From positions 1 to 35,486 of IMG/VR virus record IMGVR_UViG_2724679238_000015: a stretch of DNA of 35,486 nt, one strand, 5' to 3'. Every line of letters begins with the position of its first letter. Position 1 is the stretch's first letter. Under the pieces are notes generated by a model. It did not search any database and was not told where the DNA came from. It worked only from the letters and a program-made list of their open reading frames with translations. Below are positions 3,630 to 25,320 of this stretch, in pieces. This DNA is from a virus. Taxonomy: Duplodnaviria; Heunggongvirae; Uroviricota; Caudoviricetes. Both the position numbers and the translations under genes were made by a program.

Positions 3630-3872
3630 ATGGATAAAGAATATAAAACTCTCGTCAATAAAGCACTTGAGCGCTTTCATTTTCGCTTAAACGCATCAGG
3701 CGCTCATGCTGAACGCGCAGCCCGAGAGTCATTGACCAGAGCTATCAAGAGTATATACGACACGGCTTTTTACGTTGACGACCCGGACGCGCTCGACGAG
3801 CTTTCCGTACTCGTCTGCGCCGCAGAAAACGGGGACCATATTGAGCCATATAAACTGGGAAATATTGCATGA
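3630..3872 (+). CDS. hypothetical early protein
   Basis: 80-aa ORF with AAAGGG RBS. Confidence 0.5.
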   Translation: MDKEYKTLVNKALERFHFRLNASGAHAERAARESLTRAIKSIYDTAFYVDDPDALDELSVLVCAAENGDHIEPYKLGNIA

Positions 3873-3982
3873 GTATATTTATCTCATGGCTTGTTCTGAT
3901 TATTTCGGTGGCCTGCGCTATTGGGATTATGCGAATTATTAATTCAGTAAAAAAGATTGAACGCTTTTTCACTGAAGAATAA
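3869..3982 (+). CDS. 37-aa hydrophobic peptide, predicted single transmembrane helix
   Basis: ATG at 3869 overlaps the upstream stop (ATGA). Translation MSIFISWLVLIISVACAIGIMRIINSVKKIERFFTEE. Too short for the ORF track. Confidence 0.3.
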   Translation: MSIFISWLVLIISVACAIGIMRIINSVKKIERFFTEE

Positions 3983-5026: not shown

Positions 5027-7822
5027 GTGGCAACGGAGTACATCAGAAACTGGCAACAACCACGCCATGCAGTCGGTCGCGAGGGAACGGGGGAGCCTGT
5101 CCGCCCCTCCCTTCTTTCTTCCTGGCTGGATGCCTACCGGGCAGAGAACGAGCGCCGCCAGGAAATGGCTGATGCGGCGTTCTCCGCCACGCCGCTGGGC
5201 AATCTGATTAATAAAAACCTGGACGCACAGGAAAAACAGGACAAAGCCATCACACTGGCAAGAGAAGCCAGAAAACAGGCGTGTGGCGCGGTGGATGAAG
5301 CAATTGCCGCACTGCGCCTGCTGCCGTCCTATCTGCGAGATCCGCTTATCCGCCATCTCTCTTTCCTGCGCAAAAAACAGGAATCCGATCGTCAGAAAGG
5401 CAAAAAGAGCTGGCAGGCTGAACGCTACGCGCGCGGAACCCTGCGCAAAATATTCGAACGTCTGGAGCGCACCGACAGACGCTGGCTGACACCGGGTTAT
5501 CGCTCCCTTGCCGGGCGTGAACGCCTGGATGATTTACTTTACCTGCCGCAGCTCAACAAACACCAGATACAGACGCTGGCCGTCATGACAGCGGCGATGT
5601 TCAGCAGCACCTTCGAAAAACTCTGCGATGACTTTGGCGCGACCGATGGCGAGCTGACCATGGATATAACGCTGAAGGCGTATCAGATGCTGGCCCGCAT
5701 GGCGTTACATCTGCACACAGTGCCGCCGCATTATGACGCACTGACAACAGACAAAGACCGGAAGAACGAACCGGACACGGAGCTGCTGCCGGGTGCAATC
5801 CTCCGCCTGACCTGTGCGGACTGGTGGAAACGCAAATTGTGGCTTTTACGTTGCGAATGGAGAGAGGAACAACTCCGCGCTGCCTGTCTGGTTTCCAGAA
5901 AAACATCCCCCTATCTGAGTCAGGACGCATTAAGTGAATTTCGCGCACAGCGCGAGAAAACACGCGATTTCCTGAAAAGTTTCATGCTGGAAAATGAAGA
6001 CGGGTTCACGATTGATCTTGAGACGGTGTATTACGCGGGAGTAAGTAACCCGGTCCACCGTAAGGCAGAAATGATGGCCACCATGAAGGGGCTGGAACTT
6101 CTGGCCGAAGCCCGTGGCGACAAAGCGGTATTTCTGACCGTTACCTGCCCGTCAAAATATCACGCAACAACGGAGAACGGTCATCCGAATCCCAAATGGA
6201 ACGGCGCCACCATGCGCGATTCCAGCGATTACCTGGTTAACACTTTTTTTAAGGCAGTCCGCAAAAAACTGAACCGCGACGACCTGCGCTGGTATGGTAT
6301 CCGCACGGTGGAGCCACACCATGACGGCACCGTGCACTGGCACATGATGGTCTTTGCACATCCTGAAGAAATCGACAGCATCGTGGACATCACCCGTGAT
6401 ATTGCCATTCGCGAAGACCGCCACGAGCTGGGCAATGACATAACTCCGCGCTTTAAGGCAGAGTACGTCGACGGTTCGAAAGGTACGCCGACCAGCTACA
6501 TCGCCACCTACATCGGAAAGAACCTGGACAGCCGCGCCGTGGATGGCATTGACCCGAAAACAGGCAAGCCACGCGTTGATCACGAAACCGGAAAATCAAT
6601 GACCGAGAGCGTGGAACGCGCCATCGGCTGGGCGCGCCTTCACCGCGTCCGCCAGTTCCAGTTCTTTGGTATCCCCTCCCGTCAGGTATGGCGTGAACTC
6701 CGCCGCCTTGCCAGTCAGATGGCCCGCACCCCGGAAGGTCCACAACGTCTGGAAAATGACGCAATGGATGCGGTACTCGCTGCCGCTGATGCCGGGTGTT
6801 TTGCCACCTACATTGAGAAACAGGGGGGCGTACTTGTTCCACGCAAGGATTACCTGATTCGCACCGCCTACGACCTCGCAGAAGAGCTGAACGATTACGG
6901 CGAGCAAAGCGTACAGATTTACGGGATCTGGTCGCCACAAATCGGGGAATCTTCCCGCGTGTGCACGCACCCGGATAACTGGAAGCTGGTAAGACGTAAA
7001 CCGGAAGCGGAAGACAGCGCCCGCGAAAATGGTTTTGACCTTCAGGGCGGCCCTGCCGCCCCTTGGACTCGTGGCAATAACTGTCCCCGTGTACAGGAAA
7101 CAGGCAACAGCGGGACAGAACTGTCGGAAGAGCAACCAACACCGTGGCCGCAGATCCCTGACGGCGTTGATGTGGATGAATGGATGCGCTCACTGAAACG
7201 GCACGAACGTCGGGCGCTGATGCGTTCGCTTCGTAACAAACAGGCAAAAAACAACAGTGATGAAATGCAGAGCTGGACACAGAGCCGCAAACAGCCGCGG
7301 TCTTTGCCTGATAACCACGAGTTACTCGCTAAAGAATGGCGGGAGTCTGCCGAATCTCTCGGCCTGCATATCGGTGAACAACAGATGCTGCGCCTGTTAC
7401 GGGGCGGCAGTCTGTACGTTGACGGCAGCATCATTGCACCGCAGGGATTTGAAATTGTACGCAAACCGGATACCCGCCCGGACAGCCGAATCACGCAGCT
7501 CTGGCAGCGCCTGAGCCGTAATCACGGCGTAAGCAGCACGGAGATCCGTCATAACCCGATCGCCAGCTATCTGGAACAGCTGGGGGCATCAGACCCCGAA
7601 GCCGCCGTACGCCTGGCATCCACACTTCAGCAGGACCAGAACACCATGAAAACACCCGTTACCGTGCTTTCTGACATGCTGCGTGCCATCCGTGACGCAG
7701 AGCACGCACAGAGAATCAGTGAAACCACTGAACGCGCCCGCCGCAAAGCAGACCTGCTGCGGTGGCCTGACCAGCGGAAACAAAAAACAGACAGAAACGG
7801 GATTCACAAATCCCGTAAATGA
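5027..7822 (+). CDS. A: replication initiation protein, P2 gpA-like rolling-circle endonuclease
   Basis: 931 aa, GTG start. Contains the conserved metal-binding block VEPHHDGTVHWHMMVFAH and YIATYIGKN tyrosine region of the P2 A family. The C-terminal ~250 aa is a low-complexity R/Q/E-rich extension. Confidence 0.85.
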   Translation: MATEYIRNWQQPRHAVGREGTGEPVRPSLLSSWLDAYRAENERRQEMADAAFSATPLGNLINKNLDAQEKQDKAITLAREARKQACGAVDEAIAALRLLPSYLRDPLIRHLSFLRKKQESDRQKGKKSWQAERYARGTLRKIFERLERTDRRWLTPGYRSLAGRERLDDLLYLPQLNKHQIQTLAVMTAAMFSSTFEKLCDDFGATDGELTMDITLKAYQMLARMALHLHTVPPHYDALTTDKDRKNEPDTELLPGAILRLTCADWWKRKLWLLRCEWREEQLRAACLVSRKTSPYLSQDALSEFRAQREKTRDFLKSFMLENEDGFTIDLETVYYAGVSNPVHRKAEMMATMKGLELLAEARGDKAVFLTVTCPSKYHATTENGHPNPKWNGATMRDSSDYLVNTFFKAVRKKLNRDDLRWYGIRTVEPHHDGTVHWHMMVFAHPEEIDSIVDITRDIAIREDRHELGNDITPRFKAEYVDGSKGTPTSYIATYIGKNLDSRAVDGIDPKTGKPRVDHETGKSMTESVERAIGWARLHRVRQFQFFGIPSRQVWRELRRLASQMARTPEGPQRLENDAMDAVLAAADAGCFATYIEKQGGVLVPRKDYLIRTAYDLAEELNDYGEQSVQIYGIWSPQIGESSRVCTHPDNWKLVRRKPEAEDSARENGFDLQGGPAAPWTRGNNCPRVQETGNSGTELSEEQPTPWPQIPDGVDVDEWMRSLKRHERRALMRSLRNKQAKNNSDEMQSWTQSRKQPRSLPDNHELLAKEWRESAESLGLHIGEQQMLRLLRGGSLYVDGSIIAPQGFEIVRKPDTRPDSRITQLWQRLSRNHGVSSTEIRHNPIASYLEQLGASDPEAAVRLASTLQQDQNTMKTPVTVLSDMLRAIRDAEHAQRISETTERARRKADLLRWPDQRKQKTDRNGIHKSRK

Positions 7823-7888
7823 GCAAAAAACGCGCCGCGATATATGAAACGCGCACAAAACAGGCAAAAGCGGGATTTCAGAATCCCG
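7798..7888. promoter_or_regulatory. two 18-bp palindromes CGGGATT-N4-AATCCCG (7798..7815 and 7871..7888) flanking the parM-like promoter; candidate parC centromere/operator
   Basis: Both copies have perfect 7-bp arms and are followed by TAAA. Centres are 73 bp apart, about 7 helical turns. The second overlaps a plausible -35/-10 (TTCAGA at 7877..7882, then ATTAAT about 17 bp downstream). Confidence 0.4.
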
Positions 7889-7923
7889 TAAACGATTAAT
7901 TAATCAACATAAGGAAAATCGAC

Positions 7924-8883
7924 ATGAAAATTTGCATCGACGACGGCTCCACCAACATCAAGCTGGCATGGACTGAGAACGGCGAACGCCGCAACGCCAT
8001 CAGCCCGAACAGCTTCAAGTCGGAATGGTCTGCGCCGTTCGGTGGCACGCAGCCCGCGAACTACATGCTTGATGGCGTGCGCTATGGTTTTGATCCGGTC
8101 AGCGATCGCTTTGTCCAGACGACCGACACGCAATACCAGTACAGCGATGTGAATGTCATTGCCATTCATCACGCGCTGGTCAAATCAGGTATCACACCAC
8201 AGGAAGTGGACGTGGTTGTCACTCTGCCACTGAGCGAGTATTTCGATACAAACGCACAGCCGGACATGGCCAACATCAACCGCAAAAAAGCGAATGTCCT
8301 GCGCCCTGTGGAGTACCAGAACGGTGAAGCATTCACTATCCGCAACGTGCGGGTTATGCCTGAATCCATTCCGGCTGGCTTTAAGGCACTGGCTGACATG
8401 AGTCCGTTTGAATCCCTGCTGATTGTGGATTTAGGCGGAACAACGCTGGATGTGGCAAAGGTTCAGGGGCAACTGGCAGGCATCAGCCAGGTGTTTTGCG
8501 ATCCACACGTAGGCGTTTCCCTGATGGCTGATGCCGTGCTGTCGGTGCTGGCCACTAACGGTATGCGTACCAGTCACCACATCGCCAATACCATTATTGA
8601 GCACCGTCACGATGAAGCCTGGCTACGCCAGCACATTCACAATGACGCGCATTACAACAGCCTGATAGCGGTTATTCGTGAAAAGGAGGAGACACTGAAA
8701 CAACGCGTGATCCGCGCACTCGCGGGCTTTTCGGGTTACGGGCGGGTGCTGGTTGTCGGTGGAGGAGCGGAGATTGTGGCACCCGCAGTCCGTGAAGTCT
8801 ATGGAGTCAATGCGAATTTCATCACAGACGGGGTGCCACAGTTTGCTCTGGTTAACGGTCTGTACGCTATGGATAAGGAGTAA
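7924..8883 (+). CDS. parM: ParM/StbA-family actin-like segregation ATPase
   Basis: 319 aa. MKICIDDGSTNIKL..ISPNSFK..YSDVNVIAIHHALVKSGITPQEVDVVVTLPLSEY matches plasmid R1 ParM as I recall it (MLVFIDDGSTNIKLQW...ISPNSFK...QYSDVNVVAVHHALLTSG). AAGGA RBS. Confidence 0.8.
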   Translation: MKICIDDGSTNIKLAWTENGERRNAISPNSFKSEWSAPFGGTQPANYMLDGVRYGFDPVSDRFVQTTDTQYQYSDVNVIAIHHALVKSGITPQEVDVVVTLPLSEYFDTNAQPDMANINRKKANVLRPVEYQNGEAFTIRNVRVMPESIPAGFKALADMSPFESLLIVDLGGTTLDVAKVQGQLAGISQVFCDPHVGVSLMADAVLSVLATNGMRTSHHIANTIIEHRHDEAWLRQHIHNDAHYNSLIAVIREKEETLKQRVIRALAGFSGYGRVLVVGGGAEIVAPAVREVYGVNANFITDGVPQFALVNGLYAMDKE

Positions 8884-8889
8884 CCCTCC

Positions 8890-9201
8890 ATGGCGACATT
8901 AACCAGAAGAATAAGTTTCTATCTGAAGCCAGCCGCCGTCAAGAACGAAGGCAAAGCATGCGCCTGGCTGGACAGCCTTACACCAGAAGCCCGCAAAAGC
9001 GGCCAACGCGTGGCTTTTCTGCCCGGGCTGGCACTTCTGAAAATGAATCCGGCAGAGGCTTACCGACTGGCTGCATGGGCTGATGATGAGGCGTTATCAG
9101 TGACACAAACCAGGGCAGAACGCCACATGTTACAGCCAGCGCCCACCGCACAGATAACCAGTCAGCTAGCCGGAAATATCCGGGCGTTATTTCCCGAATA
9201 A
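8890..9201 (+). CDS. parR: ParR-like centromere-binding protein
   Basis: 103 aa, AAGGAG RBS, directly after parM. RISFYLKP, WLDSLTPEARKSGQRVAFLPGLAL and NIRALFPE resemble R1 ParR (IAFKLNP, TLDSIPQGERSRLNRAALTAGLAL, LRSLFPKE). Confidence 0.65.
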   Translation: MATLTRRISFYLKPAAVKNEGKACAWLDSLTPEARKSGQRVAFLPGLALLKMNPAEAYRLAAWADDEALSVTQTRAERHMLQPAPTAQITSQLAGNIRALFPE

Positions 9202-9264
9202 CACAACATCAGGGCGCATCCGCCCTGATGACTTTAATCCGGGAACATAAACAAGAGGGACACA

Positions 9265-9606
9265 ATGCAACACATTGACAGAGAAAAAGCGCAGCGACTG
9301 ATTGAGCGGATGGAAGCGCTGGCGAAAGAAGAAAATGTCAACATCCAAAAAATAGCAGAATGTGGCCAGATAGTTCTTCGTCGTGAAAAAGACATCAAGC
9401 AACTGATGTCTGGCGAAACCAGCAAAACACGGATTCCAGGCGAGAAAACGATTTATTGTAGCTTCTGCAATAAATCCCAGTACGAAGTCACAAAGGTGAT
9501 TGCCGGACCGTCTGTTTACATCTGCAATGAGTGCGTGGATTTGTGCAATGAAATTATCAGGAGAGAAGCGACTGACCATGAAGAAGCGCGGAGATGCAAC
9601 GATTAA
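9265..9606 (+). CDS. small protein with a C-terminal ClpX-type C4 zinc-finger domain
   Basis: 113 aa. [38 protein letters not shown] is near-identical in pattern to the ClpX N-terminal zinc-binding domain ([34 protein letters not shown]). Preceded by a charged, probably helical N-terminal half; no AAA+ domain. Confidence 0.7.
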
Positions 9607-9674
9607 GTCGGGTAATGATATTGAGCAGGCGACTCACTGGATGCCGATGCCAGAAGCGTTTCAGGAGGTTAACC

Positions 9675-9950
9675 GTGGCTAACCTGCAACTTGCCGTCAA
9701 AGGTGAATACTTCGATGCCATGATTCGCGGAGAGAAAACAGAAGAGTATCGCCTGGTTAATTCATACTGGTCTCGCCGTATATTGGATAAGAGCTATGAT
9801 CGATTGATTATTACTAAGGGGTATCCGAAACGCGACGATTTAAGCCGCAGAATTGATGTCCCATATGGGGGATATGAGATCAAGGTGATAACACATCCAC
9901 ATTTTGGACCAGAGCCAGTAAAAGTATTTGCTATTAAGTTGACTCAATGA
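9675..9950 (+). CDS. ASCH (PUA-like) domain protein
   Basis: ORF-track frame 9594..9950; GTG at 9675 has an AGGAGG RBS 6 nt upstream. VANLQLAVKGEYFDAMIRGEKTEEYR fits the N-terminal beta-strand/GxKTxExR signature of ASCH domains. Confidence 0.5.
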   Translation: MANLQLAVKGEYFDAMIRGEKTEEYRLVNSYWSRRILDKSYDRLIITKGYPKRDDLSRRIDVPYGGYEIKVITHPHFGPEPVKVFAIKLTQ

Positions 9951-10210
9951 CCGATACCACTAAGAAAAAGACGTTAAATAACATACATGAAAAGTATGAT
10001 TATTTTACGGATACCGCTTGCTTGCTGACATCTGAAGAACAAAAGATAGCCCAACTTTTAGGCGATGCATGGAACCTGTATTTAACATTGCCAGTTGAGC
10101 ATCCAATGGGTAGAGATGAATTTTGCCGGGCAATTCATCATTGCCAAAATATGGTGTTGGCACGCCCTGCCATCAGGGCGCTGGCCAGTAAGGGGCAAGG
10201 CTATAAATAG
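9947..10210 (+). CDS. hypothetical protein, last gene of the accessory island
   Basis: 87-aa ORF; start overlaps the ASCH stop (ATGA); followed by a terminator. Confidence 0.5.
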   Translation: MTDTTKKKTLNNIHEKYDYFTDTACLLTSEEQKIAQLLGDAWNLYLTLPVEHPMGRDEFCRAIHHCQNMVLARPAIRALASKGQGYK

Positions 10211-10218
10211 ATGAGCAA

Positions 10219-10245
10219 AACGCCCTCCTCCAGGGCGTTTATTTC
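10219..10245 (+). terminator. rho-independent terminator closing the accessory island
   Basis: Stem AACGCCCT / AGGGCGTT with CCTCC loop, followed by TATTTC. Confidence 0.5.
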
Positions 10246-10644
10246 AATGCACAATAGTGCACAAATTTGCACAATTTTTTTGAACAACTTTTTACCCTTC
10301 CGGCCCGCGTGGCGGCTGGATCCGTCAAGGATCCGTGCATGCACAAAAAAACGCGTTTTTTCTGCGCGCAGGTGACGGGGGAACAGCCCGCGTTTCAGGG
10401 GGTAAATAGCATTCCCTGAGCGATGTCGCAGCGACACAACAGAATGGCTGTATTTCTCACGCTGAGCGTGAAAAAGACGTAAGGGTTTTTGATTTGATGG
10501 GTTGAAAGGTAAGGCCGTCAAAATCGCACTGAGGCGGCGAGAACATACAGTCAACGCGGTGGGATTGCGTAAGAGTCTGACCGTCGATGGTGGCGATAAA
10601 CTGGAAGGCGTCGTGAAATTATCTGATTGATACGGAGCTGGAGA

Positions 10645-10672
10645 GTCGGGGCATAAATTTTTTATGCCCCGG
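10645..10672 (-). terminator. hairpin downstream of portal gene Q, probable terminator of the P-Q operon
   Basis: CGGGGCAT / ATGCCCCG stem around an A/T-rich loop, about 30 bp beyond the Q stop. Confidence 0.4.
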
Positions 10673-10697
10673 CGAAGCAGCAGACAAGCGAAGCGCG

Positions 10698-11744
10698 TCA
10701 GGCTGTGGGCTGGGTGTCTAACAGTGCGTAAGGGTTAAAGCGGATCACCTCTTCGCCCAGCCAGTCATTGATGTGCTTCATGGCCTCCATGACGGGCATC
10801 AGCTCGTTAATTGCGTAAACCCGCGCGGCCTTCTCCACATCACCAAACGCACTTTTTTCACCCGGCATCGCCCCCATCAGTTGCGGCGGAACGCGGTGCG
10901 CAGCCAGCACATCATCACGGGATGCCGCCTTAACATTCATGAACTCATCCTTTGCGGTGATCTGCTGGAACGGCAAAATTTGCACCCCCTCTTTGCCCCC
11001 GTTGGGCGCATGAATGAGCACGTTTTTAAACGCACCACCACCACGTGCCCCCTGTAGCGTTTCTTTCAGGGAGTCCATGCTTTCGCGGTTTACCTGCGCT
11101 GCACCGATGTAGATGATGCACCCGGCGTGGGATCCGTTGTCGTAATACAGTTTTCTGAACATGTCCGCCGAATGAGACAGGCTGGCCGAGAGTAATGCGC
11201 CGAGATATTCCGGCATGCCGTAGATTTCCTGGTTAATGTCAGGATTCATCAGGTGGCACACTTTGCCAGGGCGAAACTGAAACGCGTCCTTACCATCCTG
11301 CACATACCACCATGATTCAAGATCGCTTCCGCGTCGCATGTATTTCGCCAGGGCGTGCCGTAATTTAAGCGGTTCGCCGAGCATATTGCTTCGAAGCTCA
11401 AGGAATGCGTTACCGAACACAAACCAGTCCAGCGCCAGCGCCGAGAAATCCTGCCGGGAAAGCAGCGGGTGCGGAATATAGCAGCCGAGCAATACATTGC
11501 GCTTAAAGTAAAGCGCAGACTGATGCCAGGACGTTTGCCGGGCAGCTCTTGCCAGACCGTACCAGTCCACCGGGGTTTCATACCATCGCCCGTTATCGGC
11601 ACAGTACATATTGTCCAGTAAATCATGCCCGGTCAGGCGGTAAGGGCCGTCAAATGTGAATGCACTGAGCGATGATTCTTTCCTGAGCGCATCAGCGAGA
11701 TCAATGCGTGAACTCATGCGCACTTTTTTATTTTTTCTGCTCAT
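10698..11744 (-). CDS. Q: capsid portal protein (P2 gpQ homolog)
   Basis: 348 aa; size, position downstream of the terminase ATPase gene and overall similarity to P2 Q. ATG overlaps the P stop (ATGA). Confidence 0.85.
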   Translation of the reverse strand: MSRKNKKVRMSSRIDLADALRKESSLSAFTFDGPYRLTGHDLLDNMYCADNGRWYETPVDWYGLARAARQTSWHQSALYFKRNVLLGCYIPHPLLSRQDFSALALDWFVFGNAFLELRSNMLGEPLKLRHALAKYMRRGSDLESWWYVQDGKDAFQFRPGKVCHLMNPDINQEIYGMPEYLGALLSASLSHSADMFRKLYYDNGSHAGCIIYIGAAQVNRESMDSLKETLQGARGGGAFKNVLIHAPNGGKEGVQILPFQQITAKDEFMNVKAASRDDVLAAHRVPPQLMGAMPGEKSAFGDVEKAARVYAINELMPVMEAMKHINDWLGEEVIRFNPYALLDTQPTA

Positions 11745-13495
11745 CAGAACTCCATAACCGTGAAACGCTCGTTTTCTCCTTCGCCGCCAATCGGTTCGTT
11801 AATGACAGCAAGCATGGTTGCCCACGCAAGGTCGCCGTGGCTGATCCCCCTCGCGCGGTCCGTTTCGTAAGTGATAAAGCCGCCCGGTGTTTTCACCTTA
11901 CGCACGGCGTTAAAGGCCGCGACCAGCTCCCGTTCGGCACGATCGTATTCCCAGCGCCCGGCACGCATTATTTGCAGCATTTTCAGTACCAGCGACCGTT
12001 TTGATGACAGCGTGAAGGTGTACGGAATAGCAGCAGGGAAAAACCGTTTCACTATCTGATAAACAGCCTCCCCGTTCCCGCCCGTCACATCAATGCCGAT
12101 GTGTTCCACGTTGTAGCGATACGTAAACTCTTCAATGACTCTGGCCTGTTCTTCAAACTCCAGCCCCTGAACGCGTCGCGTCTCCACCGTTCGAAAACGG
12201 CCACCAGGAACAGCCGGAGGAACCACCACGGACACAGCGCCGCTGTCGCCGTTGCCACTGCTGCCGTTTGCGTCATACCCAATCCATACCGGGCGATTCC
12301 CCATCGGGCGGGGAGCAAAAGGTTTCCAGTCTTTCCAGTCGTCGTATCCGTCAACGCCGCAGCCAATCAGGATATTCAGGTTAAATGCCGATTCCCCTTC
12401 GCGGACAAACTCACACATATAGAGATTGAGGAACTCGTCTTCGGTGTTTTCATCACGAATTTCATCAATATCGGTGTGTTTCCAGCCGTGATTAACCACA
12501 TCTTCCAGCGTGACAATTTGCCGCCACGTCCGGTCAGGGCAGATAAGCCCGTTATGCAGCGTTTTCCAGTCAACAGAAAAACGCTGGCGTTTATGCGTGG
12601 CCTTTTTCTCATTCCAGCGGTCGCCGTTCCAGTAGGCGTATGCCTCGTGCGTTTCGGTGGATGGCGTGGAGAAGTAGGTGCGCCGCAGTCCGCTGAGGGT
12701 TGCCATAGCGCCAGCCACCTTGCGCAGTTCAGCAAAGCGACTGACCCAGAAAAATTCATCAAAATAAAAATTGCCCGTATAGGACTGTGCCGACGCAGCA
12801 GAAGTGCCGAGAAAATGCAGCTCTGCGCCGTTGGAGAGGATGATTTTATCGCCCCCTTTCAGCTCCACATCAACTTCAGCCGCGGCCTTCTGAATAATGC
12901 TTTTAAACTGGAACGCCTGACGACGCGACGCAGACAAAAAAATCTGGTTACGCTGGTAAGGTTGCGCCACATCGTCACGCAGCGCCATCAGCAGAGCTTC
13001 CTGTGCAAAATACCAGGTCGCCCCAATCTGTCGGGATTTCAGGATCATCCTGTTACGTATCCCGGCTTCCCTGCAAAGGGTCAGGGAGTCAAACCAGCCC
13101 CGCTGATGCCACTCCAGCCTGCTGATGATTTTTTCCCGCAGTGCGGCAATCTGTTCCGGCGTGAAATGATTTTTAAGTTTTTTCGCCCGGCCTTTCTTTC
13201 CTGTGGCCGTCGCATCCGGCTGGGCATCATGCAGTTTTTTAAGCTGCCGGGTCAGCAGGTCTATTTCCTTGAAGTCACCACCTGTTTTATTCTGTTTTTC
13301 AGTGAGCTGGATGAGGCGCGCATCGATGGACTGCGTGACACGCTGCACGGGTGGCGTTTCATCCCACTGGTCGCGTTTTTTCCACGCATAAATCGTGTTC
13401 GGGTTTATTCCCATCAGACGTGATATTTCTGCGGGCGGATAACCCTGCCAGTAAAGTTGTCGCGCACGCTGGCGCACAAAAGCGTCCTGAATCAT
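11744..13495 (-). CDS. P: terminase large (ATPase) subunit (P2 gpP homolog)
   Basis: 583 aa; N-terminal HTH-like MIQDAFVRQRARQLYWQGYPPAEISRLMGINPNTIYAWKKRDQW and a nuclease-like C-terminal half, as in P2 P. Confidence 0.85.
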   Translation of the reverse strand: MIQDAFVRQRARQLYWQGYPPAEISRLMGINPNTIYAWKKRDQWDETPPVQRVTQSIDARLIQLTEKQNKTGGDFKEIDLLTRQLKKLHDAQPDATATGKKGRAKKLKNHFTPEQIAALREKIISRLEWHQRGWFDSLTLCREAGIRNRMILKSRQIGATWYFAQEALLMALRDDVAQPYQRNQIFLSASRRQAFQFKSIIQKAAAEVDVELKGGDKIILSNGAELHFLGTSAASAQSYTGNFYFDEFFWVSRFAELRKVAGAMATLSGLRRTYFSTPSTETHEAYAYWNGDRWNEKKATHKRQRFSVDWKTLHNGLICPDRTWRQIVTLEDVVNHGWKHTDIDEIRDENTEDEFLNLYMCEFVREGESAFNLNILIGCGVDGYDDWKDWKPFAPRPMGNRPVWIGYDANGSSGNGDSGAVSVVVPPAVPGGRFRTVETRRVQGLEFEEQARVIEEFTYRYNVEHIGIDVTGGNGEAVYQIVKRFFPAAIPYTFTLSSKRSLVLKMLQIMRAGRWEYDRAERELVAAFNAVRKVKTPGGFITYETDRARGISHGDLAWATMLAVINEPIGGEGENERFTVMEF

Positions 13496-13649
13496 TGCTC
13501 CCCCTGAGTAATTACAGGAAGATTACCCGCGCGCGAAACCGTTCTCCTTAACCCCCTGTTCTGGCCGTTTTCTTACAACAAAAGCCCTTTGTATCAGCCT
13601 GTTACGCTTTGCCATCATGACTGAAGAACCAGTCAGAGGGGCAAAAACT

Positions 13650-14486
13650 ATGGCTAATGAAAAAAAGACATCCCGCAAAAAGTTTCGCGTGGCTGTCTCC
13701 GGTGTAACGGCAGACGGGCGCGAAATCAACGGCGACATGCTGAAAGCTGCCGCCACCAGTTATAACCCGTCCGTTTATGGTGCACGTGTGAATATTGAGC
13801 ACATCCTGTCACCACTCCCCGGTAGCGAGTTTTCCGCTATGGGCGATGTTGTGGGGTTGAGCACCGAAGACATAACCGATGGCCCGCTGGCAGGTCGCAC
13901 GGCACTGTATGCCGAAATTGAGCCGACCGCTCGCATGATGTCCCTGCTTAACGATGGTAAAAAAATTTACTCCAGTATTGAGCTGGAACCACAGTCAACC
14001 ATCACGGGAGGCCCTTACCTGCGCGGGCTGGCAATGACAGACACCCCCGCCAGCCTGGGCACGGAACGTCTGGCCTTTGCGGCACAACAACGTATGCAAC
14101 TGATGACATTCAACTGTCAGCAGGGAGACGTGGCGATGTTTACCGCCGCTATGGAGTCAGAACTTATCGAACTCACCGAACAACGTCAGGAAGAAGGCAC
14201 CCAGTGGTTTAACCGCGTTATGGGGATTATTGGCCGTGGCCGCAAAGCGGATGACGCCAGCTTTTCCCGTATTCAGGAAGCGGTGGAAGGCGTCGCAACG
14301 TCACAGGCCGACATTATCGACCGTTTTAATGTGCTGGAAACCCGCCATCAGCAGGACAGCCAGAAAATCACATTACTGACCACAGAGCTGGCAGCACTGA
14401 AGGAAAAACTGCGCACGCAGGACGGCGATCCGCAGAACCGGTTCACCGCAACAGGCGCAGCCTCCGACCAGCTGGCTGACTTCTGA
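13650..14486 (+). CDS. O: capsid scaffolding protein (P2 gpO homolog)
   Basis: ATG at 13650 with AGAGGGG RBS. MANEKKTSRKKFRVAVSGVTADGREI resembles the P2 O N-terminus. Divergent from P/Q as in P2. Confidence 0.8.
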   Translation: MANEKKTSRKKFRVAVSGVTADGREINGDMLKAAATSYNPSVYGARVNIEHILSPLPGSEFSAMGDVVGLSTEDITDGPLAGRTALYAEIEPTARMMSLLNDGKKIYSSIELEPQSTITGGPYLRGLAMTDTPASLGTERLAFAAQQRMQLMTFNCQQGDVAMFTAAMESELIELTEQRQEEGTQWFNRVMGIIGRGRKADDASFSRIQEAVEGVATSQADIIDRFNVLETRHQQDSQKITLLTTELAALKEKLRTQDGDPQNRFTATGAASDQLADF

Positions 14487-14509
14487 TAAGACAAAGGAGC
14501 AAATTTTTT

Positions 14510-15562
14510 ATGAATCTGGTGATGTCAGATATTACCCGCAACAAACTGGGTTGCTATATGGCGCAGCAGGCGTCGCTTAACAATATCCCGGTTTCTGCAC
14601 TGGTATCGCGATTTACCGTAGAACCCTCGGTGCAGCAGCGTTTTGAAAACGCAGTAAAGGAGAGCACTGAATTTACAAAAAAAATTAACGTGTTCGGTGT
14701 GACCGACCAGAAAGGCGAAAAAATCCTCCTGGACACCACCGGGCCGATTGCGCGCACGAATACCAGTTATGACGGCACAAAACGCCGTAACCCGAATAAC
14801 GTGGTTGATCTGAAAAACCGCAAATATCAGTGCGAACAGGTGAACTACGACACGTTTATTTCGTATCCGCAGCTTGATGCCTGGGCGGCACACCCTGATT
14901 TTCAGTCCCGCGTCAGCACACAGATTGCCCGGCAGGTGGCGCTTGACCGCATCATGATCGGTTTCAACGGCACGTCTCACGCAGATGAGTCCAACTTCAG
15001 CACCAACAAGCTGCTTCAGGACGTTAACGTGGGATGGCTGGAGCACATCAGAACCGACGCCAGCGAGCGCGTAATGAATGACGTGACGCTGACCTCCCGC
15101 AACATGGACAACACCGTGGCGCACGCAGGTAAGTATGCTAACGCTGATGCACTGGTACAGGACGCGCGCTCATCCCTGCTGGATGAATGGCACAAGGAAG
15201 CTGACGACCTCGTGGTGATTATGGGGCGCAACCTGTTTAACTCGCTGCGTCTGCCCGTGCTGAACAGCATCAGCGGCCAGAATCCCAATGCGGAATTACT
15301 TGCCGGACAGCTCATCCTGTCATCGCGCGCCATTGGCGGGCTGGATGTATTCCTTGCGCCGTTCTTCCCGGATGCAACGATGCTTATCACCTCGTTCAAC
15401 AACCTGTCAATTTACTGGCAGAAAGGAACAATGCGTCGCCTGATGAAAGACGAGCCGGAATACAACCGCATCGCCACCTACCAGTCCATCAACGATGCCT
15501 ATGTCGTTGAGGATTACGGCAAGTGCGCGATGGTCACTGGCCTGAAGTTCGCCGACAGCTAA
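14510..15562 (+). CDS. N: major capsid protein (P2 gpN homolog)
   Basis: 350 aa, AAGGAG RBS. KFTVEPSV, IGFNGT, LSIYW and YVVEDY blocks match P2 N. Confidence 0.9.
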   Translation: MNLVMSDITRNKLGCYMAQQASLNNIPVSALVSRFTVEPSVQQRFENAVKESTEFTKKINVFGVTDQKGEKILLDTTGPIARTNTSYDGTKRRNPNNVVDLKNRKYQCEQVNYDTFISYPQLDAWAAHPDFQSRVSTQIARQVALDRIMIGFNGTSHADESNFSTNKLLQDVNVGWLEHIRTDASERVMNDVTLTSRNMDNTVAHAGKYANADALVQDARSSLLDEWHKEADDLVVIMGRNLFNSLRLPVLNSISGQNPNAELLAGQLILSSRAIGGLDVFLAPFFPDATMLITSFNNLSIYWQKGTMRRLMKDEPEYNRIATYQSINDAYVVEDYGKCAMVTGLKFADS

Positions 15563-15607
15563 TCAACTCACGGTGGGCATCATGCCCGCCTGTAACGGAG
15601 AGAAAAA

Positions 15608-16405
15608 ATGATTACTCCTGCACAACAACACTGGCAGAACGTGATGGCACAGCGCGCAGGCCGGGCGAATGAAGGCGTGGACCACGCCGCGCGTACTGCG
15701 CATGAAGAGGTGCTGTATCGTCTGCGTCTGGCACAGGCCCGGCTTAAGGGCGTACAGGCCAGAAGCGCCAAAGCCGCCATCAAAAAAGAGTTGTTGCCGG
15801 ACTTTTCCGGCTGGATTGAAGGAACGCTGGAGGCTGACGGCGGGCAACAGGACGAAGTGATTGCCACGCTGATGGTGTGGGCGATTGACTGCGGCGATCT
15901 TCCGCTTGCGCTGCGTATTGGTGCGTATGTGGTCCGTCACAACCTCATCATGCCGGATAACTTTGGCCGTACTGCTGCCACAGTGCTGACCGAAGAAATC
16001 TGCAACCCGGTACTGACGCAGGCCGGGACGGATGCCGACGCGGATTTGTCAGCCTTTATCGAACCACTGGACACCCTCCGGGAGATTGTCACCGACCAGG
16101 ACATGCCGGACGAAGTGCGCGCCAAATTATGCAAGGCGTGCGCCTTTGCCCGTCGTGGTCTGACCGATGCAAACAACACGGCCTTATCACTGAAGCTGCT
16201 GCGCGAAGCGATGCACCTGAACCCGAACGCAGGTGTGAAACGCGAGATTGCAACCCTTTCCCGCGCCCTGAAAAAAGCCGATTCCGCAGCCGCACCAGTT
16301 GCCTGCGCACCGCAGGCGCAGGACGAAAGCAGCAAAAGTAAAAAGACAACGCGGAAGCCTGCAACACGAAAAACCACCGCGACGCAGAAGGCGAAGCGCG
16401 GTTAA
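15608..16405 (+). CDS. M: terminase small (endonuclease) subunit (P2 gpM homolog)
   Basis: 265 aa. DMPDEVRAKL and REIATLSRALK with a basic C-terminal tail, as in P2 M. Confidence 0.8.
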   Translation: MITPAQQHWQNVMAQRAGRANEGVDHAARTAHEEVLYRLRLAQARLKGVQARSAKAAIKKELLPDFSGWIEGTLEADGGQQDEVIATLMVWAIDCGDLPLALRIGAYVVRHNLIMPDNFGRTAATVLTEEICNPVLTQAGTDADADLSAFIEPLDTLREIVTDQDMPDEVRAKLCKACAFARRGLTDANNTALSLKLLREAMHLNPNAGVKREIATLSRALKKADSAAAPVACAPQAQDESSKSKKTTRKPATRKTTATQKAKRG

Positions 16406-16506
16406 CGACTGACCCCGTCAGCGGGCGGCGTGCGCGGTGTTCCGGTTTGACTCCGTGACCGTTTACACCACGCACCCACCGCCCGATTTTTTCAGGAGTG
16501 AACCCC

Positions 16507-17001
16507 ATGAGTATGGTTGCCAGAACCGAAACCCGCCCCGCAGAGGATGACATCACTGATACCGATGATGGCGATACCCGTATTTCTGCGGGGGCATTCT
16601 GGCCGGATATTGTGCTGCGTGAGCTGCGTCTGGCGGTACGACTGCCGGGCCGCGTGACCACCTCCCGCCTGCTGCATACCGCCACCGGGGCGGTGGCCCA
16701 CGTTACCCGTGAGCTGGAAGCGTGGCAGCAGGAACAGCAGGCAGCCGGACACGAAACACTGGCCGATGTCCCGGCGCCATTAATTAACGGAGAAAGCGTC
16801 AATCTCTGGCACTGGCGCAATGCGGTTTACACCGCCACCCGTGCCCTGATTCTGGAGCGTTACCGCGATGCGGACACAACGGATAAGGGCGAGCGCCGGG
16901 CAGATGCACTGGACGCACAGGCTGCGGACCTGTGGCGCGATGTGAGCTGGGCCATCTCTGACATTCTGGGAAGACCACGAATGTTTGCGGAGTTGTGCTG
17001 A
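16507..17001 (+). CDS. L: head completion/stabilisation protein (P2 gpL homolog)
   Basis: ATG at 16507 with AGGAG RBS (ORF-track frame from 16498). C-terminal DLWRDVSWAISDILGRPRMFAELC resembles P2 L. Confidence 0.8.
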   Translation: MSMVARTETRPAEDDITDTDDGDTRISAGAFWPDIVLRELRLAVRLPGRVTTSRLLHTATGAVAHVTRELEAWQQEQQAAGHETLADVPAPLINGESVNLWHWRNAVYTATRALILERYRDADTTDKGERRADALDAQAADLWRDVSWAISDILGRPRMFAELC

Positions 17002-17201
17002 TGAAAGTGAAGGCACTGGCAGGCGACACCGTGGATTCGCTCTGTTTCCGGTACTACGGCACGACGCAGGGCGTCACCGAAAAGGTGCTGGATGCCAACC
17101 CCGGACTCTGCCGACAGGTGTTTCTGGAAGCCGGGCAGGAAGTGGAAATGCCGGAGCCGGAGAAGAAGAAACGAGAAATGATTCAGTTGTGGGGGGAGTA
17201 G
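17001..17201 (+). CDS. X: tail protein X (P2 gpX homolog)
   Basis: ATG at 17001 overlapping the L stop. MKVKALAGDTVDSLCFRYYGTTQGVTEKVLDANPGL resembles P2 X, about 67 aa. Confidence 0.75.
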   Translation: MKVKALAGDTVDSLCFRYYGTTQGVTEKVLDANPGLCRQVFLEAGQEVEMPEPEKKKREMIQLWGE

Positions 17202-17203
17202 TA

Positions 17204-17527
17204 GTGAGCACCATTCAAACAGGGATCACAGAGCAGGTTATTGCGTGGCTCTTTGACCACCTGCCAACGGTGTACGCAGCAGGCGCGGCGGTCAGCATTT
17301 CCGCGCTGATGAGCCTTTATGACGGACGAACGCTGGTTCAGACCGTAACGGGATCGCTGGCGTGCGGCGTTCTTGCCATGGCCGTGGCCGGGTCGTTGCG
17401 CTTCTTCGGAGTTCCTGAAGATGCCGTGACGTTTTTCGGCGCATCTATCGGTTTTATGGGCGCAGAAAAAGCACGCGACAAGATCATTGCCGCCTTTAAC
17501 CGCATAACCCAAAAGGGAGATGAATAA
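17204..17527 (+). CDS. putative holin
   Basis: GTG at 17204 with GGGGGGAG RBS. About 107 aa with two or three hydrophobic helices, directly upstream of the endolysin. Confidence 0.5.
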   Translation: MSTIQTGITEQVIAWLFDHLPTVYAAGAAVSISALMSLYDGRTLVQTVTGSLACGVLAMAVAGSLRFFGVPEDAVTFFGASIGFMGAEKARDKIIAAFNRITQKGDE

Positions 17528-17581
17528 GTCTCAGGCTTAAAGCTGGTAATCACCATAAAAATCATTCACAGAGGTGGCGAA

Positions 17582-18127
17582 ATGAAATCGAAAGACGAAA
17601 TTTTTGATGCCGTTCTGGGCAAAGAAGGCGGCTACGTCAATCACCCGGATGACAAAGGCGGCCCGACAAAATGGGGCATCACTGAAAAGGTGGCACGGGC
17701 GCACGGATACCGTGGCGATATGCGTGATTTAACGCGCGGACAAGCACTGGAAATCCTTGAAGCTGATTACTGGTACGGACCGCGTTTTGATCAGATAGCG
17801 AAGCTGTCCCCGGATATTGCCGCAGAACTGTGTGACACCGGAGTAAATATGGGGCCGTCTGTGGCAACCAGAATGCTGCAGCGCTGGCTGAACGCATTCA
17901 ATCAGGGCGGGAAACTGTATCCCGATATGGACACGGACGGACGCACTGGCCCACGCACGATTAACGCATTGCGTGCATATCTGGAAAAACGCGGTAGGGA
18001 CGGCGAGATGGTGATGTTAGCAGCACTGAACTGTACACAGGGTGAACGCTATCTGGAGCTGGCGGAAAAACGCGAAGCCAACGAGTCGTTTGTCTACGGC
18101 TGGATAAAGGAACGCGTGGCAGCATGA
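17582..18127 (+). CDS. endolysin, GH108-type muramidase with peptidoglycan-binding region
   Basis: 181 aa. GGYVNHPDDKGGPTKWGIT and DYWYGPRFD are characteristic of the GH108/TtsA-like family. Confidence 0.75.
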   Translation: MKSKDEIFDAVLGKEGGYVNHPDDKGGPTKWGITEKVARAHGYRGDMRDLTRGQALEILEADYWYGPRFDQIAKLSPDIAAELCDTGVNMGPSVATRMLQRWLNAFNQGGKLYPDMDTDGRTGPRTINALRAYLEKRGRDGEMVMLAALNCTQGERYLELAEKREANESFVYGWIKERVAA

Positions 18128-18531
18128 GGTTATGGACTTCTCTGGGCGTCGCTTTTCTTCTGATTGCCGCATGGGGAGCATCCATGCGTCTGTCGTGGTC
18201 GCTGGGCCGGGAGAACGCCAGATACGAAGCGCAGGCCAGCACCCTGAGAAGTACCGTCGACACCATGAATATCATCAGCGCCGGGGTACAGGATCTGCAG
18301 CAGGTACTGGCACAACTCCGCGCGGAAAATCAGCAACGCAATCAGGACGGAGAGGCCAGACGTGAACAACTACGCAACGATATTGCAAAAGATGAATGCG
18401 CCCACGCTTTGCCTGACGCTCGTTTTACTGACAGGTTGCGCAGGCACGCAGAACGCGCCACTGCCAGCGCCGTCAGTCCGGCTTATACCGCAGACGCTGA
18501 CCATACCGGTAACGCCTCCCCCCTTCCCTGA
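18124..18531 (+). CDS. inner-membrane spanin (Rz/LysB-like)
   Basis: 135 aa. N-terminal TM (LWTSLGVAFLLIAAWGA) then a coiled-coil-like periplasmic region. Start overlaps the endolysin stop. Confidence 0.55.
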   Translation: MRLWTSLGVAFLLIAAWGASMRLSWSLGRENARYEAQASTLRSTVDTMNIISAGVQDLQQVLAQLRAENQQRNQDGEARREQLRNDIAKDECAHALPDARFTDRLRRHAERATASAVSPAYTADADHTGNASPLP

Positions 18532-18682
18532 TACTCCCACCTGGGGAAACCTCGGTATATGGGGCGACCGCCTTCTGGATGCACTGGAAACCTGTAACAC
18601 AGATAAACGGGCCATTGAATTACTGGAGCAGCGCAGACTGCAACGACTGAACAACGAGGACAACAGCCATGCTGAAAACTGA
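18392..18682 (+). CDS. outer-membrane spanin lipoprotein (Rz1/LysC-like)
   Basis: ATG at 18392 in the +1 frame inside the i-spanin gene. Lipobox LLTGC followed by a proline-rich stretch (PVTPPPFPDTP). Confidence 0.5.
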   Translation: MNAPTLCLTLVLLTGCAGTQNAPLPAPSVRLIPQTLTIPVTPPPFPDTPTWGNLGIWGDRLLDALETCNTDKRAIELLEQRRLQRLNNEDNSHAEN

Positions 18683-19136
18683 TTCCCTGCGTGAAGCCAT
18701 GACCCGTTCATGTCGATGGTGTCACGCCAACCCGGAGAAATTCACCATTTTCGTGGAGAGCGGCAACATTGAAACGACCGGAGAAACTCCCTCGTTTGCT
18801 TACCGCTATCAGATGGTGATGTTTGTCATGGATTACGCCGGGGAGCTTGACGACCTGACGCTGCCGCTGCTGGCGTGGTTGTCGGAGAATCAGCCACAGT
18901 TGTTGCTCAACCCTGAGCGTAATCAGGACATCAAATTTTCCGCCGTTATTAATGACGATGACAGCGCCGACATCCTGTTTACGCTGCCCCTGCGGGAGCG
19001 CGTTCGCGTCACGCGCAGCAGTCAGGGCACACCGCAGGCAGAACACCTGCCGGAGCCAAAACCCCGCATGCCCTCTTCCGAAGGCGACTGGTCACATGTA
19101 TTCCAGGATGTGACGTGGGGCGAAAGCGATGGATAA
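18669..19136 (+). CDS. R: tail completion protein (P2 gpR homolog)
   Basis: 155 aa. MLKTDSLREAMTRS...LPLLAWLSENQP matches P2 R (MLKPDSLRRAL...VPVLAWLRENQP). Confidence 0.85.
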   Translation: MLKTDSLREAMTRSCRWCHANPEKFTIFVESGNIETTGETPSFAYRYQMVMFVMDYAGELDDLTLPLLAWLSENQPQLLLNPERNQDIKFSAVINDDDSADILFTLPLRERVRVTRSSQGTPQAEHLPEPKPRMPSSEGDWSHVFQDVTWGESDG

Positions 19137-19764
19137 GGCATTCACCCGCGCGGATGAAACCTTCGAGGCTATCCGCGACAGCCTGAATCAGCAGGCCATC
19201 AATAACATCGCCAGAAGGCTGGCACAGGATTTACGCCGCGCCCAGCAGGCGCGCATCCGGTCACAGAAAGCACCGGACGGGACCGCATGGACACCACGCA
19301 GACGCCGCGTAACCCGGATACAGGAGCGCATTCGCTTTATCTGGAATAACGAAACACGCACGCTGAAAAACTGGCATCACGACACAGGGAAATACGGGCG
19401 AACTATTACCGGGTGGGATGAGGATAAAAACAATATCCGCACGTTTTACCGGGATGACATCGACCGTTTTCTGGAAATACGCACCCGGCGTATCAACCAG
19501 GACAGCACAAAGCACGTCCCCATGTTCGTAAAACTGCGCACCGCCCGTTACCTGAAAGCCCGCGCGGATGCCTCCGGTGTGACAGTAGGTTACAGCGGCG
19601 TGGCCGCACGTATTGCACGCGTTCATCAGCTCGGTGAACGCGATCAGGTTGCGCCGGGTATTTTCACCGATTACCCGGTACGTGAGCTGCTGGGTATCAG
19701 TCAGGCGGATGAGCGCCTGATTTATAACACGGTGCTGGGCCGGATTGCGGAGGCAGTACAGTGA
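19129..19764 (+). CDS. virion morphogenesis/tail completion protein (gpS position)
   Basis: 211 aa, between R and V homologs; assignment is by position only. Confidence 0.55.
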   Translation: MDKAFTRADETFEAIRDSLNQQAINNIARRLAQDLRRAQQARIRSQKAPDGTAWTPRRRRVTRIQERIRFIWNNETRTLKNWHHDTGKYGRTITGWDEDKNNIRTFYRDDIDRFLEIRTRRINQDSTKHVPMFVKLRTARYLKARADASGVTVGYSGVAARIARVHQLGERDQVAPGIFTDYPVRELLGISQADERLIYNTVLGRIAEAVQ

Positions 19765-20342
19765 ACGCAGAACTTATGAGACTGCTGAGCAATATCATCC
19801 GCACCGGGATCATCTCTGAAGTTGATGAGAAATCCTGGTGCGTGCGGGTCCTCAGCGGCGGACTGGAAACAGGCTGGTTGCGCTGGAACACCACGCGCGC
19901 GGGAGCCTTCAACGTGTGGCTGCCGCCATCAGTGGGCGAACAGGTGGCAATTGCCTGCATCGGCGGCAACCCGGAAACAGCCATGATAATTGGCAGCCTG
20001 TGGAGCGATGACATTCCGGCCCCCGGAAAAAACCTGAAAGAAATCGTGGTCAGCGCGCCGGATGGCGCGGTGTTCTGCTACGACGCGGACGCAGGCGCAC
20101 TGAGCGCCAGCGGCATGAAAACGGCCACCCTGCAGGCATCCGTCAGCGTGAAACTGGACACACCTGTCGTGGAGTGCACAAACCTTCTGAAAACAGCCGA
20201 GATTGACGTCACAAAAGGGGGAAAGATGAGCGGCAATATCACGCACAGCGGCGGCAATTTCACCTCAAACGGCATCACTGTGCATACGCATAAACACGGT
20301 GGCGTTAAAGGTGGCAGCGATTCGACAGGAGGACCGCAGTGA
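19761..20342 (+). CDS. V: baseplate spike protein (P2 gpV homolog)
   Basis: 193 aa. C-terminal GNITHSGGNFTSNGITVHTHKHGG matches the gpV spike signature. Confidence 0.85.
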   Translation: MNAELMRLLSNIIRTGIISEVDEKSWCVRVLSGGLETGWLRWNTTRAGAFNVWLPPSVGEQVAIACIGGNPETAMIIGSLWSDDIPAPGKNLKEIVVSAPDGAVFCYDADAGALSASGMKTATLQASVSVKLDTPVVECTNLLKTAEIDVTKGGKMSGNITHSGGNFTSNGITVHTHKHGGVKGGSDSTGGPQ

Positions 20343-20689: not shown

Positions 20690-20692
20690 ATC

Positions 20693-22112: not shown

Positions 22113-22114
22113 GC

Positions 22115-24343: not shown

Positions 24344-24345
24344 TT

Positions 24346-24879: not shown

Positions 24880-24882
24880 GAG

Positions 24883-25319: not shown

Positions 25320-25320
25320 A

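Follow-up and report, generated by a model that had tools for sequence, protein, structure and literature searches.

What is the role of three helically phased copies of the heptamer TGCACAA, with a fourth copy further to the right, in the non-coding interval beside the portal gene of a P2-like phage? The repeats are located in the viral sequence IMGVR_UViG_2724679238_000015 (Caudoviricetes), which was analysed over its full length of 35,486 nt and is referred to below as the window. A first reading made from the DNA letters alone (the sequence-only reading) had placed them in the probable packaging region between an accessory island and portal gene Q, where P2-like phages carry the cohesive-end site (cos). 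It had also seen a partial likeness to the 186/P2 cohesive end in the GC-rich stretch CGCGTGGCGG, next to a direct repeat of GGATCCGT at 10318 and 10329. The four TGCACAA copies (10248, 10258 and 10268 at 10-bp spacing, and 10340) and the GGATCCGT pair were indeed all present, and gene order, the adjoining hotspot and core homology identified the interval as a P2-family cos region between the accessory island and Q. As judged from sequence comparisons, the staggered cut most likely lies ~25-45 bases to the right of the position proposed at first.

The interpretation that we favour, with a probability of roughly 0.7, is that the interval corresponds to the right-arm half of cos in a P88-like prophage of the P2 family. 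The cut would fall at ~10370/10371 and give a ~19-nt 5′ cohesive end, GGTGACGGGGGAACAGCCC, while the four TGCACAA copies would serve as terminase recognition elements. The interval is composed of the following features:

10248..10274, plus strand: distal TGCACAA triplet with 10-bp spacing, at -122/-112/-102 relative to the predicted cut; proposed as the distal repeats recognised by terminase
10275..10298, plus strand: T-rich tract (T7 ... T5) directly after the array, conserved as TTTTT(TT)GA..TTTTT
10299..10339, plus strand: variable spacer with CGCGTGGCGG and the GGATCCGT pair, conserved in length but not in sequence
10340..10352, plus strand: fourth TGCACAA with its A-run, TGCACAAAAAAAC; proximal repeat at -30 and left edge of the cos-core homologue
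10340..10396, plus strand: homologue of the 55-bp P2-family cos core (profile search)
10364..10369, no strand assigned: left half-site GCGCGC at -7..-2, as in P2 (GCGGGC) and Klebsiella-type phages (alignments)
10371..10389 (±2), plus strand: predicted cohesive end GGTGACGGGGGAACAGCCC, with the top-strand cut predicted at 10370/10371; start and length uncertain by ~2-3 nt

The repeat array and the predicted cohesive end

By direct reading and pattern search, TGCACAA was located at 10248-10254, 10258-10264, 10268-10274 and 10340-10346, in each case on the plus strand. As such, the heptamer was not over-represented in the window (9 copies vs 9.2 expected). It was the only 7-mer of the window that is repeated three times at 9-12 bp phasing, and when the window was simulated 1000 times with a first-order Markov model, no phased triple of this kind arose. 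For four copies on the same strand within 100 nt, a Poisson probability of ~3e-6 was calculated. The GGATCCGT repeat was found at 10318-10325 and 10329-10336; with three copies in the window against ~1 expected, a number reached in 12 of 100 shuffles, its count alone is not significant. The CGCGTGGCGG stretch occupies 10306-10315, one base to the left of the earlier estimate of about 10307, and the spacer 10299-10339 did not fold into a better RNA hairpin than its shuffles (z = -0.44).

The cos core was located with two profiles. One was built from the mapped cores of P2, P4, 186 and phiCTX only, and an extended version combined the mapped cores with Klebsiella-type intermediates, the distal triplet being left out. 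When both strands of the whole window were searched with the extended profile, a single significant match was obtained, at 10340-10396 (E = 5.7e-4). Relatives fetched by exact patterns formed a graded series of divergent P2-family phages that keep the TGCACAA array and have the genes for portal and large terminase subunit (TerL) immediately to its right, the encoded proteins being only 67-78% identical to those of the window. At the far end of the series, relatives of the Klebsiella phage 3LV2017 type read ...GTGCACAAAAAGAGGTCGGTTTAGCGCGCA/GGCGAGGCGGGGGAGCAAG/CGCGCGC (the flank is also given as TAGCGCGCA), which is nearly the P2 cohesive end with its flank, GGCGAGGCGGGGAAAGCAC/TGCGCGC. These Klebsiella-type intermediates match the annotated, mapped cosR flank of phiCTX with E = 2e-8. 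At the same position the window reads ...TGCACAAAAAAACGCGTTTTTTCTGCGCGCA/GGTGACGGGGGAACAGCCC/GCG..., and the mapped left flank of phiCTX (AB008550), GCAGAAAGTGCAGAAAAAGAGGTCTATTTAGAGCGG, aligns through the Klebsiella-type intermediates with TGCACAAAAAAACGCGTTTTTTCTGCGCGCA of the window.

The stretch 10371-10389 could be aligned with the P2 cohesive end without gaps, 13 of 19 positions being identical. The window thus contains a homologue of the 55-bp core with a GC-rich ~19-nt end of the GGYGAGGCGGGG... type and with the left half-site in register. Since this core extends over 10340-10396, only its first 7 bases fall within the interval 10248-10346 that the sequence-only reading had marked. 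The resemblance to the P2 and 186 cos sequences that had been suspected held for 10340-10396, including the 13/19 match to the P2 end, but was reduced to a mere 9-mer for CGCGTGGCGG against 186.

Conservation and geometry of the repeats in the P2 family

Within the window lineage, 106 distinct window-type sequences were compared, a set for which the GGTGACGGGGGAACAGCCC stretch had not been used as a search pattern. Only 1 of the 19 columns of 10371-10389 was variable in this set, compared with 39-72% of the columns in neighbouring stretches; the highest value within the conserved block (72%) was reached at 10300-10317 (CCGGCCCGCGTGGCGGCT). The interval was found in 1142 of 5426 complete E. coli genomes (~21%). 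Most of the sampled E. coli matches began at query position 13, which corresponds to 10248, the first base of the first repeat, and to the left of this position the sequences of the relatives were unrelated.

Two of the retrieval patterns overlapped the repeats, and each element was therefore rechecked in loci that had been fetched by a different pattern. In the rechecked loci, TGCACAA copies 2 and 3 were essentially invariant, copy 1 varied at one position, and substitutions were found in the 3-nt spacers. Another 17 lineages, fetched through the cohesive-end sequence only, keep (T/C)GCACAA three times with the same phasing and positions, together with TGCACAAAAA at -30, while the stretch from -95 to -40 is completely different among them. 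The invariant columns of one alignment (A1) clustered in the GCAC cores and the T-run behind them, in the complete fourth copy, and in CGCGC with the cohesive end. Specifically, T46, T47 and T49 of the T-rich tract were invariant (T50 and T51 were at least 90% conserved), as were the CGCGC columns of the left half-site and T110-A116, A118 and A119, which represent the fourth copy and its A-run. This fourth copy was invariant in all lineages compared. In the same alignment, CGCGTGGCGG had one invariant column and the first GGATCCGT copy had none.

In sister lineages with an identical cohesive end, the spacer with CGCGTGGCGG was swapped for unrelated sequence, and the second GGATCCGT copy reads GGATCGG in sister lineages, this block being semi-conserved only. 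In the window lineage, the GGATCCGT pair resembles a local duplication of 11 bp, the first copy appearing to be lineage-specific. We propose that neither CGCGTGGCGG nor this first copy has a family-wide role and that both are part of the spacer. The T-rich tract was kept in the compared sister lineages and in Klebsiella-type relatives (including groups C and D, described below), and it might contribute to bending of the DNA. The phased TGCACAA copies are associated with cos and selectively conserved.

The same TGCACAA unit, array positions and proximal motif were present in Klebsiella 3LV2017-type and other Enterobacterales P2-family prophages (groups B-D), where the spacer is unrelated to that of the window and the packaging proteins are 58-78% identical. 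Group B and the loci L210-L229 have a cohesive-end sequence identical to that of the window. Groups C and D, unlike the window, have the P2-like cohesive end GGCGAGGCGGGGGAGCAAG and a canonical right half-site.

The repeats were then placed relative to the cut in phages with a defined cos. The geometry, for which there is no published definition, was derived here by joining the ends of the respective records, with the following result:

P2, unit TGCAT: -122, -110, -100, -28
P4, unit TGCAT: -123, -110, -100, -28
186, unit TGCAT: -123, -110, -100, -28
phiRSA1, unit TGCAT: -128, -109, -99, -28
phiCTX, unit GCAG(A/G): -109, -99, -37, -28
Smp131, unit GCAG(A/G): -111, -101, -28
window (predicted cut 10370/10371), unit TGCACAA: -122, -112, -102, -30

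In all seven layouts, the distance between the last distal and the proximal copy was 72±1 bp, and for the mapped enterobacterial phages the repeat pattern was reproduced in none of 5000 shuffles. The window displays the same-strand geometry derived from P2, P4, 186, RSA1, phiCTX and Smp131, to within 2 nt of the mapped phages. The proposed association of the phased repeats with cos was thereby borne out, as counterparts occur in P2, 186, P4, phiRSA1 and phiCTX, equally far from the mapped cuts. Within each phage, one unit (GCAT, GCAC or GCAG) is common to the distal and proximal copies, and this unit differs between lineages. The counterpart of TGCACAAAAAAAC is TGCATTAAAACC in P2, 186, P4 and RSA1, and TGCAGAAAAAG in phiCTX and Smp131.

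Like the window, P2, 186 and P4 have their site beside portal Q and an accessory hotspot, terminases of the gpM and gpP families, a GC-rich end, a left GCGCGC-type half-site at -7..-2, a TGCAxxAAAA motif in the proximal position, and a distal set of three same-strand repeats at ~-122, -110 and -100. Their unit is TGCAT instead of TGCACAA, and their distal copies are 12-13 and 10 bp apart, in contrast to exactly 10 bp in the window. Moreover, their 19-nt 5′ cohesive ends are mapped, whereas those of the window are predicted from sequence. In phiCTX, the unit is GCAG(A/G)(A/G), two tandem proximal copies are present (-37, -28), the cohesive end is annotated as 21 nt, and ctx lies between cos and the portal gene. 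As the phiCTX record annotates a "region 3 containing R4, R5, R6 repeats" that flanks cos, with these repeats placed across it, the presence of repeats beside cos in the P2 family is not a new idea. Around cos, P4 and P2 have in common only the repeats, the core and the cohesive end, with unrelated sequence in between; that the satellite P4 shares only cos with P2 has been reported previously (PMC9122126). Since P4 is packaged by the P2 terminase and shares just the repeats and the core, this is the strongest available indication that terminase reads the repeats.

Judging from these comparisons, recognition by terminase is the most likely function of TGCACAA. In the mechanism that we propose, the four same-strand copies would be sequence-specific recognition elements, three of them helically phased (-122, -112 and -102) and one at -30, with the proximal copy 72 bp (~seven helical turns) away from the third distal copy. 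They would be read by the gpM-type small subunit (TerS) or by the N-terminal helix-turn-helix (HTH) of the gpP-type TerL. Binding at the distal triplet and at the proximal copy, across a spacer that is constant in length but free in sequence, and possibly with bending or looping of the DNA, would bring the nuclease into place over the cut site with its GCGCGC flank. A staggered cut at ~10370/10371 would then produce the ~19-nt 5′ cohesive end GGTGACGGGGGAACAGCCC (10371-10389, ±2).

Both candidate readers were compared between phages with the same and with different repeat units. An N-terminal HTH of the gpP-type TerL is also noted in the 186 record. Conservation of the TerL HTH (residues 1-63) and of the rest of TerL amounted to 77-90% vs 67-77% within the GCAC (TGCACAA) group and to 77 vs 72 within the GCAG pair; between P2 and RSA1, which have the GCAT unit in common, the HTH was less conserved (52 vs 60). 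Against phages with other units the values were 36-44% vs 45-48%. The N-terminus of TerS displayed the opposite pattern. A search of solved structures yielded none related to the gpM-type TerS family and nothing informative for the TerL HTH.

In outline, lambda cos (cosQ-cosN-cosB) resembles the window in its partly two-fold-symmetric nicking site, its several short terminase sites and its conserved geometry. Lambda cosB contains the R3/R2/R1 sites for gpNu1 plus an IHF site. In the window, no good match to the IHF consensus WATCAANNNNTTR was seen by eye on either strand of 10268-10340, no formal scan having been made. Lambda differs from the window in its small subunit, for which there is no sequence or protein-family relationship, and with respect to the terminase genes the window repeats are on the opposite arm. 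In the P2 family, packaging reportedly uses monomeric circles.

Several observations weigh against our interpretation. When the mapped-only profile was used, the best match in the window was a weak one (10344-10384, E = 0.78), and because direct similarity to the mapped cores is this weak, the assignment of the cos core depends on the intermediates. The 19-mer at 10306 that had been proposed earlier is identical to the 186 end at 11 of 19 positions, little below the 13/19 of our predicted end; as these identities alone are indecisive, the choice of the cohesive end rests on flanks, conservation and geometry. The canonical right GCGCGC at +21..+26, which is present in P2, P4, 186, phiCTX, RSA1, Smp131 and the Klebsiella-type relatives, is absent from the window, where GCCCGCG is found at +16..+22 (10386-10392) instead. 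In addition, the repeats are 2 nt farther from the predicted cut than in the mapped phages. In view of the displaced right half-site and this 2-nt shift, the top nick could be at 10368-10371, with an overhang of 16-19 nt. The collections searched contained no P88-like record or contig with physically defined ends, and pattern scans of IMG/VR yielded no contig that starts or stops at the site, nearly all of the matches being integrated prophages. Covariation of the repeat unit with TerS and with the TerL HTH was mixed. Lastly, the classical 55-bp conserved core (Ziermann and Calendar 1990), as it is cited in PMC5694545 and PMC3931495, excludes the distal triplet, so that conservation is the only argument for a need of the triplet.

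Genomic setting and competing explanations

Over 601 bases around the interval, the sequence is 92-97% identical to Escherichia phage P88, Citrobacter phage phiSM, P88_4B11 and others, and the window is a phage or prophage of the P2 family that belongs to the P88-like group (genus Xuanwuvirus, Peduoviridae). Its genes and elements around cos are:

5027-7822: gpA replication protein (open reading frame map and Pfam)
7924-10210: accessory island (gpA-side hotspot)
10218..10240, plus strand: hairpin of the intrinsic terminator that ends the rightward accessory (hotspot) operon (RNA folding: -15.2 kcal/mol, z = -4.66, 0/200 shuffles as good)
10698..11744, minus strand: portal, gpQ homologue (PF04860, E = 4.5e-18)
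11744..13495, minus strand: TerL, gpP homologue (PF03237, PF17289) with N-terminal HTH (PF06056 / HTH_23)
15608..16405, plus strand: TerS, gpM homologue (PF05944, E = 5.6e-37)

Scaffold and capsid genes are on the plus strand together with the TerS gene. The interval is thus a convergent intergenic one, bounded by the terminator of the accessory operon on the left and the end of the portal gene at 10698 (minus strand) on the right. In line with other P2-family sites, it is non-coding, lies beside portal Q at the end of the Q-P operon and adjoins the gpA-side hotspot, and genes for a gpM-type small and a gpP-type large terminase subunit are nearby. The interval from gpA to Q is a known cos-adjacent hotspot of P2-like phages (PMC9122126). 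Its terminator at 10218-10240 marks the end of the variable island and lies outside cos. Neither an Rfam family nor a sigma-70 promoter-like site was found in 10150-10750.

Some further features of the surroundings were noted. The island encodes ParM at 7924-8883 (PF06406/PF21523) and a StbB/ParR-like protein at 8890-9201 (PF10784), an actin-type partition cassette in the gpA-cos hotspot; among the 109 relatives that show the complete island, 65 have ParM. Upstream of parM, a 42-nt repeat pair (7781-7822 and 7854-7895), each copy with a ACGGGATT..AATCCCGT hairpin, is plausible as a centromere or operator. The island gene at 9265-9606 encodes 113 amino acids that include a C4 zinc finger of the ClpX type (PF06689, E = 9e-18), and the open reading frames at 9594-9950 and 9947-10210 had no Pfam match. 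To the right of cos, the non-coding stretch of ~260 bp that separates the predicted cos from the stop codon of the portal gene (10390-10650) was 93-97% conserved in more than 1100 E. coli genomes, again with no Rfam match or promoter-like site; P2 and 186 have only ~170 bp at the equivalent position. A 42-amino acid open reading frame is annotated at window positions 10502-10630 in record LR595891. Just past the portal stop codon, a perfect hairpin with an 11-bp stem, CGGGGCATAAA-TTT-TTTATGCCCCG (10647-10671), occupies the position of P2 tQ and 186 tW and was not flagged by the terminator scan.

Conceivably, the repeats could be cos elements for termination, or a boundary for hotspot recombination, comparable to lambda cosQ, rather than sites of initial terminase binding. 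Lambda cosB lies on the arm next to Nu1/A, and the repeats of the window are on the virion right-end arm, away from the terminase genes. Furthermore, the hotspot boundary coincides with the first TGCACAA copy, and recombination at cos-adjacent sequence has been proposed as a driver of hotspot exchange (PMC9122126). However, multiple phased copies of one unit are typical of oligomeric small-terminase binding arrays. P4, moreover, has no recognisable element in common on the other arm beyond ~+27, and specific recognition, if any, must therefore use the repeat-bearing arm. We regard such a role as rather unlikely.

That the GC-rich stretch starting with CGCGTGGCGG at ~10306-10324 is itself the cohesive end, with the triplet on its left and the GGATCCGT pair and fourth TGCACAA on its right as terminase or IHF sites, appears improbable. 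Support came from a 9-nt identity to the 186 end (GCGTGGCGG), from the 11/19 match over the 19-mer, and from the start of record LR595891 (P88_4B11) 13 nt upstream. This record is linear, and its ends join at window position 10292/10293, inside the repeat interval. As a physical end, the start of LR595891 had to be rejected: in comparison with prophage copies the junction has no duplicated or missing bases, and according to the P88_4B11 paper terminal repeats were removed and the "nt 1 position" was picked "relative to reference genomes" (PMC6969025). Because the authors chose nt 1 and the junction has no duplicated or missing bases, this start is editorial and unmapped. Two P2-type records of the same project, LR595885 and LR595887, start exactly at the true cos; LR595869, LR595870 and LR595883 start ~-21, ~-21 and +20 from it. 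As these offsets differ, record starts in the LR5958xx series are unreliable as physical-end markers. The CGCGTGGCGG stretch, in turn, is the most variable part of the block, is missing from sister lineages with the same terminase type and identical GGTGACGGGGGAACAGCCC, where unrelated sequence is found, and never scored with the cos profiles. It has neither a TGCAxxAAAA motif at -28 nor a GCGCGC half-site, and an equally good or better 10-mer, GGCGTGGCGG, occurs by chance inside gene A (5193-5180).

It is highly improbable that TGCACAA copies 2-3 and the T-run form a backup intrinsic terminator of the accessory operon (GTGCA..TGCAC + T7), the repetition being incidental. Although the terminator scan flagged 10257-10272 followed by AATTTTTTTG, this hairpin of only 5 bp (-6.1 kcal/mol, z = -0.34, 62/200 shuffles as good) is not more stable than its shuffles, as a rho-independent terminator should be, and a strong terminator is already in place at 10218-10240. 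The equivalent repeats in P2, 186 and P4 are not followed by a T-run, and copies 1 and 4 as well as the fixed distance to cos would be left unexplained.

ParR centromeres consist of arrays of ~10-bp direct repeats, and ParM and StbB homologues are encoded upstream in the island (7924-9201). That TGCACAA is a parC-like centromere or operator for this cassette is nevertheless hardly credible, because the array does not travel with parM-parR or lie upstream of it, but is found in relatives with (65 loci) and without ParM (44 loci), 1 kb downstream of the cassette and past three other genes and a terminator, while parM has its own upstream repeat pair (7781-7895) and P2, 186, P4, RSA1 and phiCTX have such an array as well, made of their own unit and equally distant from cos.

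Possible packaging specificity of P88-like phages

No description of the P88-like packaging site was found in the accessible literature, and cos is not mentioned anywhere in a survey of 5945 P2-like genomes from 2026. The cos site described here is a known, standard kind of element in a lineage without an earlier description. At the sensitivity used, no satellite with a window-type cos was detected in the 5426 complete E. coli genomes (1309 core-only vs 1308 full-interval places), nor was one present among the fetched loci. One contig considered as a satellite (L090, IMGVR_UViG, 14437 nt) proved to be a deletion derivative of the window prophage instead. In its region 7143-9207, a direct junction links window position 10715 to 30071; the derivative has retained cos with the repeats and has lost the portal, the terminase and most structural genes. 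Separately, an unrelated viral contig (L139) carries four tandem 10-bp units, TTTGCACAAA / TTTGCACGAA, at ~3840-3880 (minus strand), with no P2-type cos or portal nearby; an iteron-like array in a different element may be built from the same unit.

As a tentative generalisation, cos of the P2 family may use a fixed scaffold that consists of three distal repeats in phase, a spacer whose length is set but whose sequence is free, and a proximal repeat ~seven helical turns away, 28-30 bp from the nick. Only the unit (GCAT, GCAC or GCAG) would vary, and it could act as a packaging-specificity code for helper, genome and satellite. In such a scheme the distal triplet would be a required part of cos, and the P88 type (GCAC with GGTGACGGGGGAACAGCCC) would represent a distinct, apparently satellite-free specificity in about one-fifth of E. 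coli genomes.

A correct placement of cos fixes the true genome ends as well as the boundary of the adjoining defence/accessory hotspot. For builders of cosmids or transducing particles, as with P2/P4, it defines the ~160 bp to be cloned (~10245-10400). Beyond this, the comparison across the family suggests a testable rule for packaging compatibility between helper phages and their satellites.

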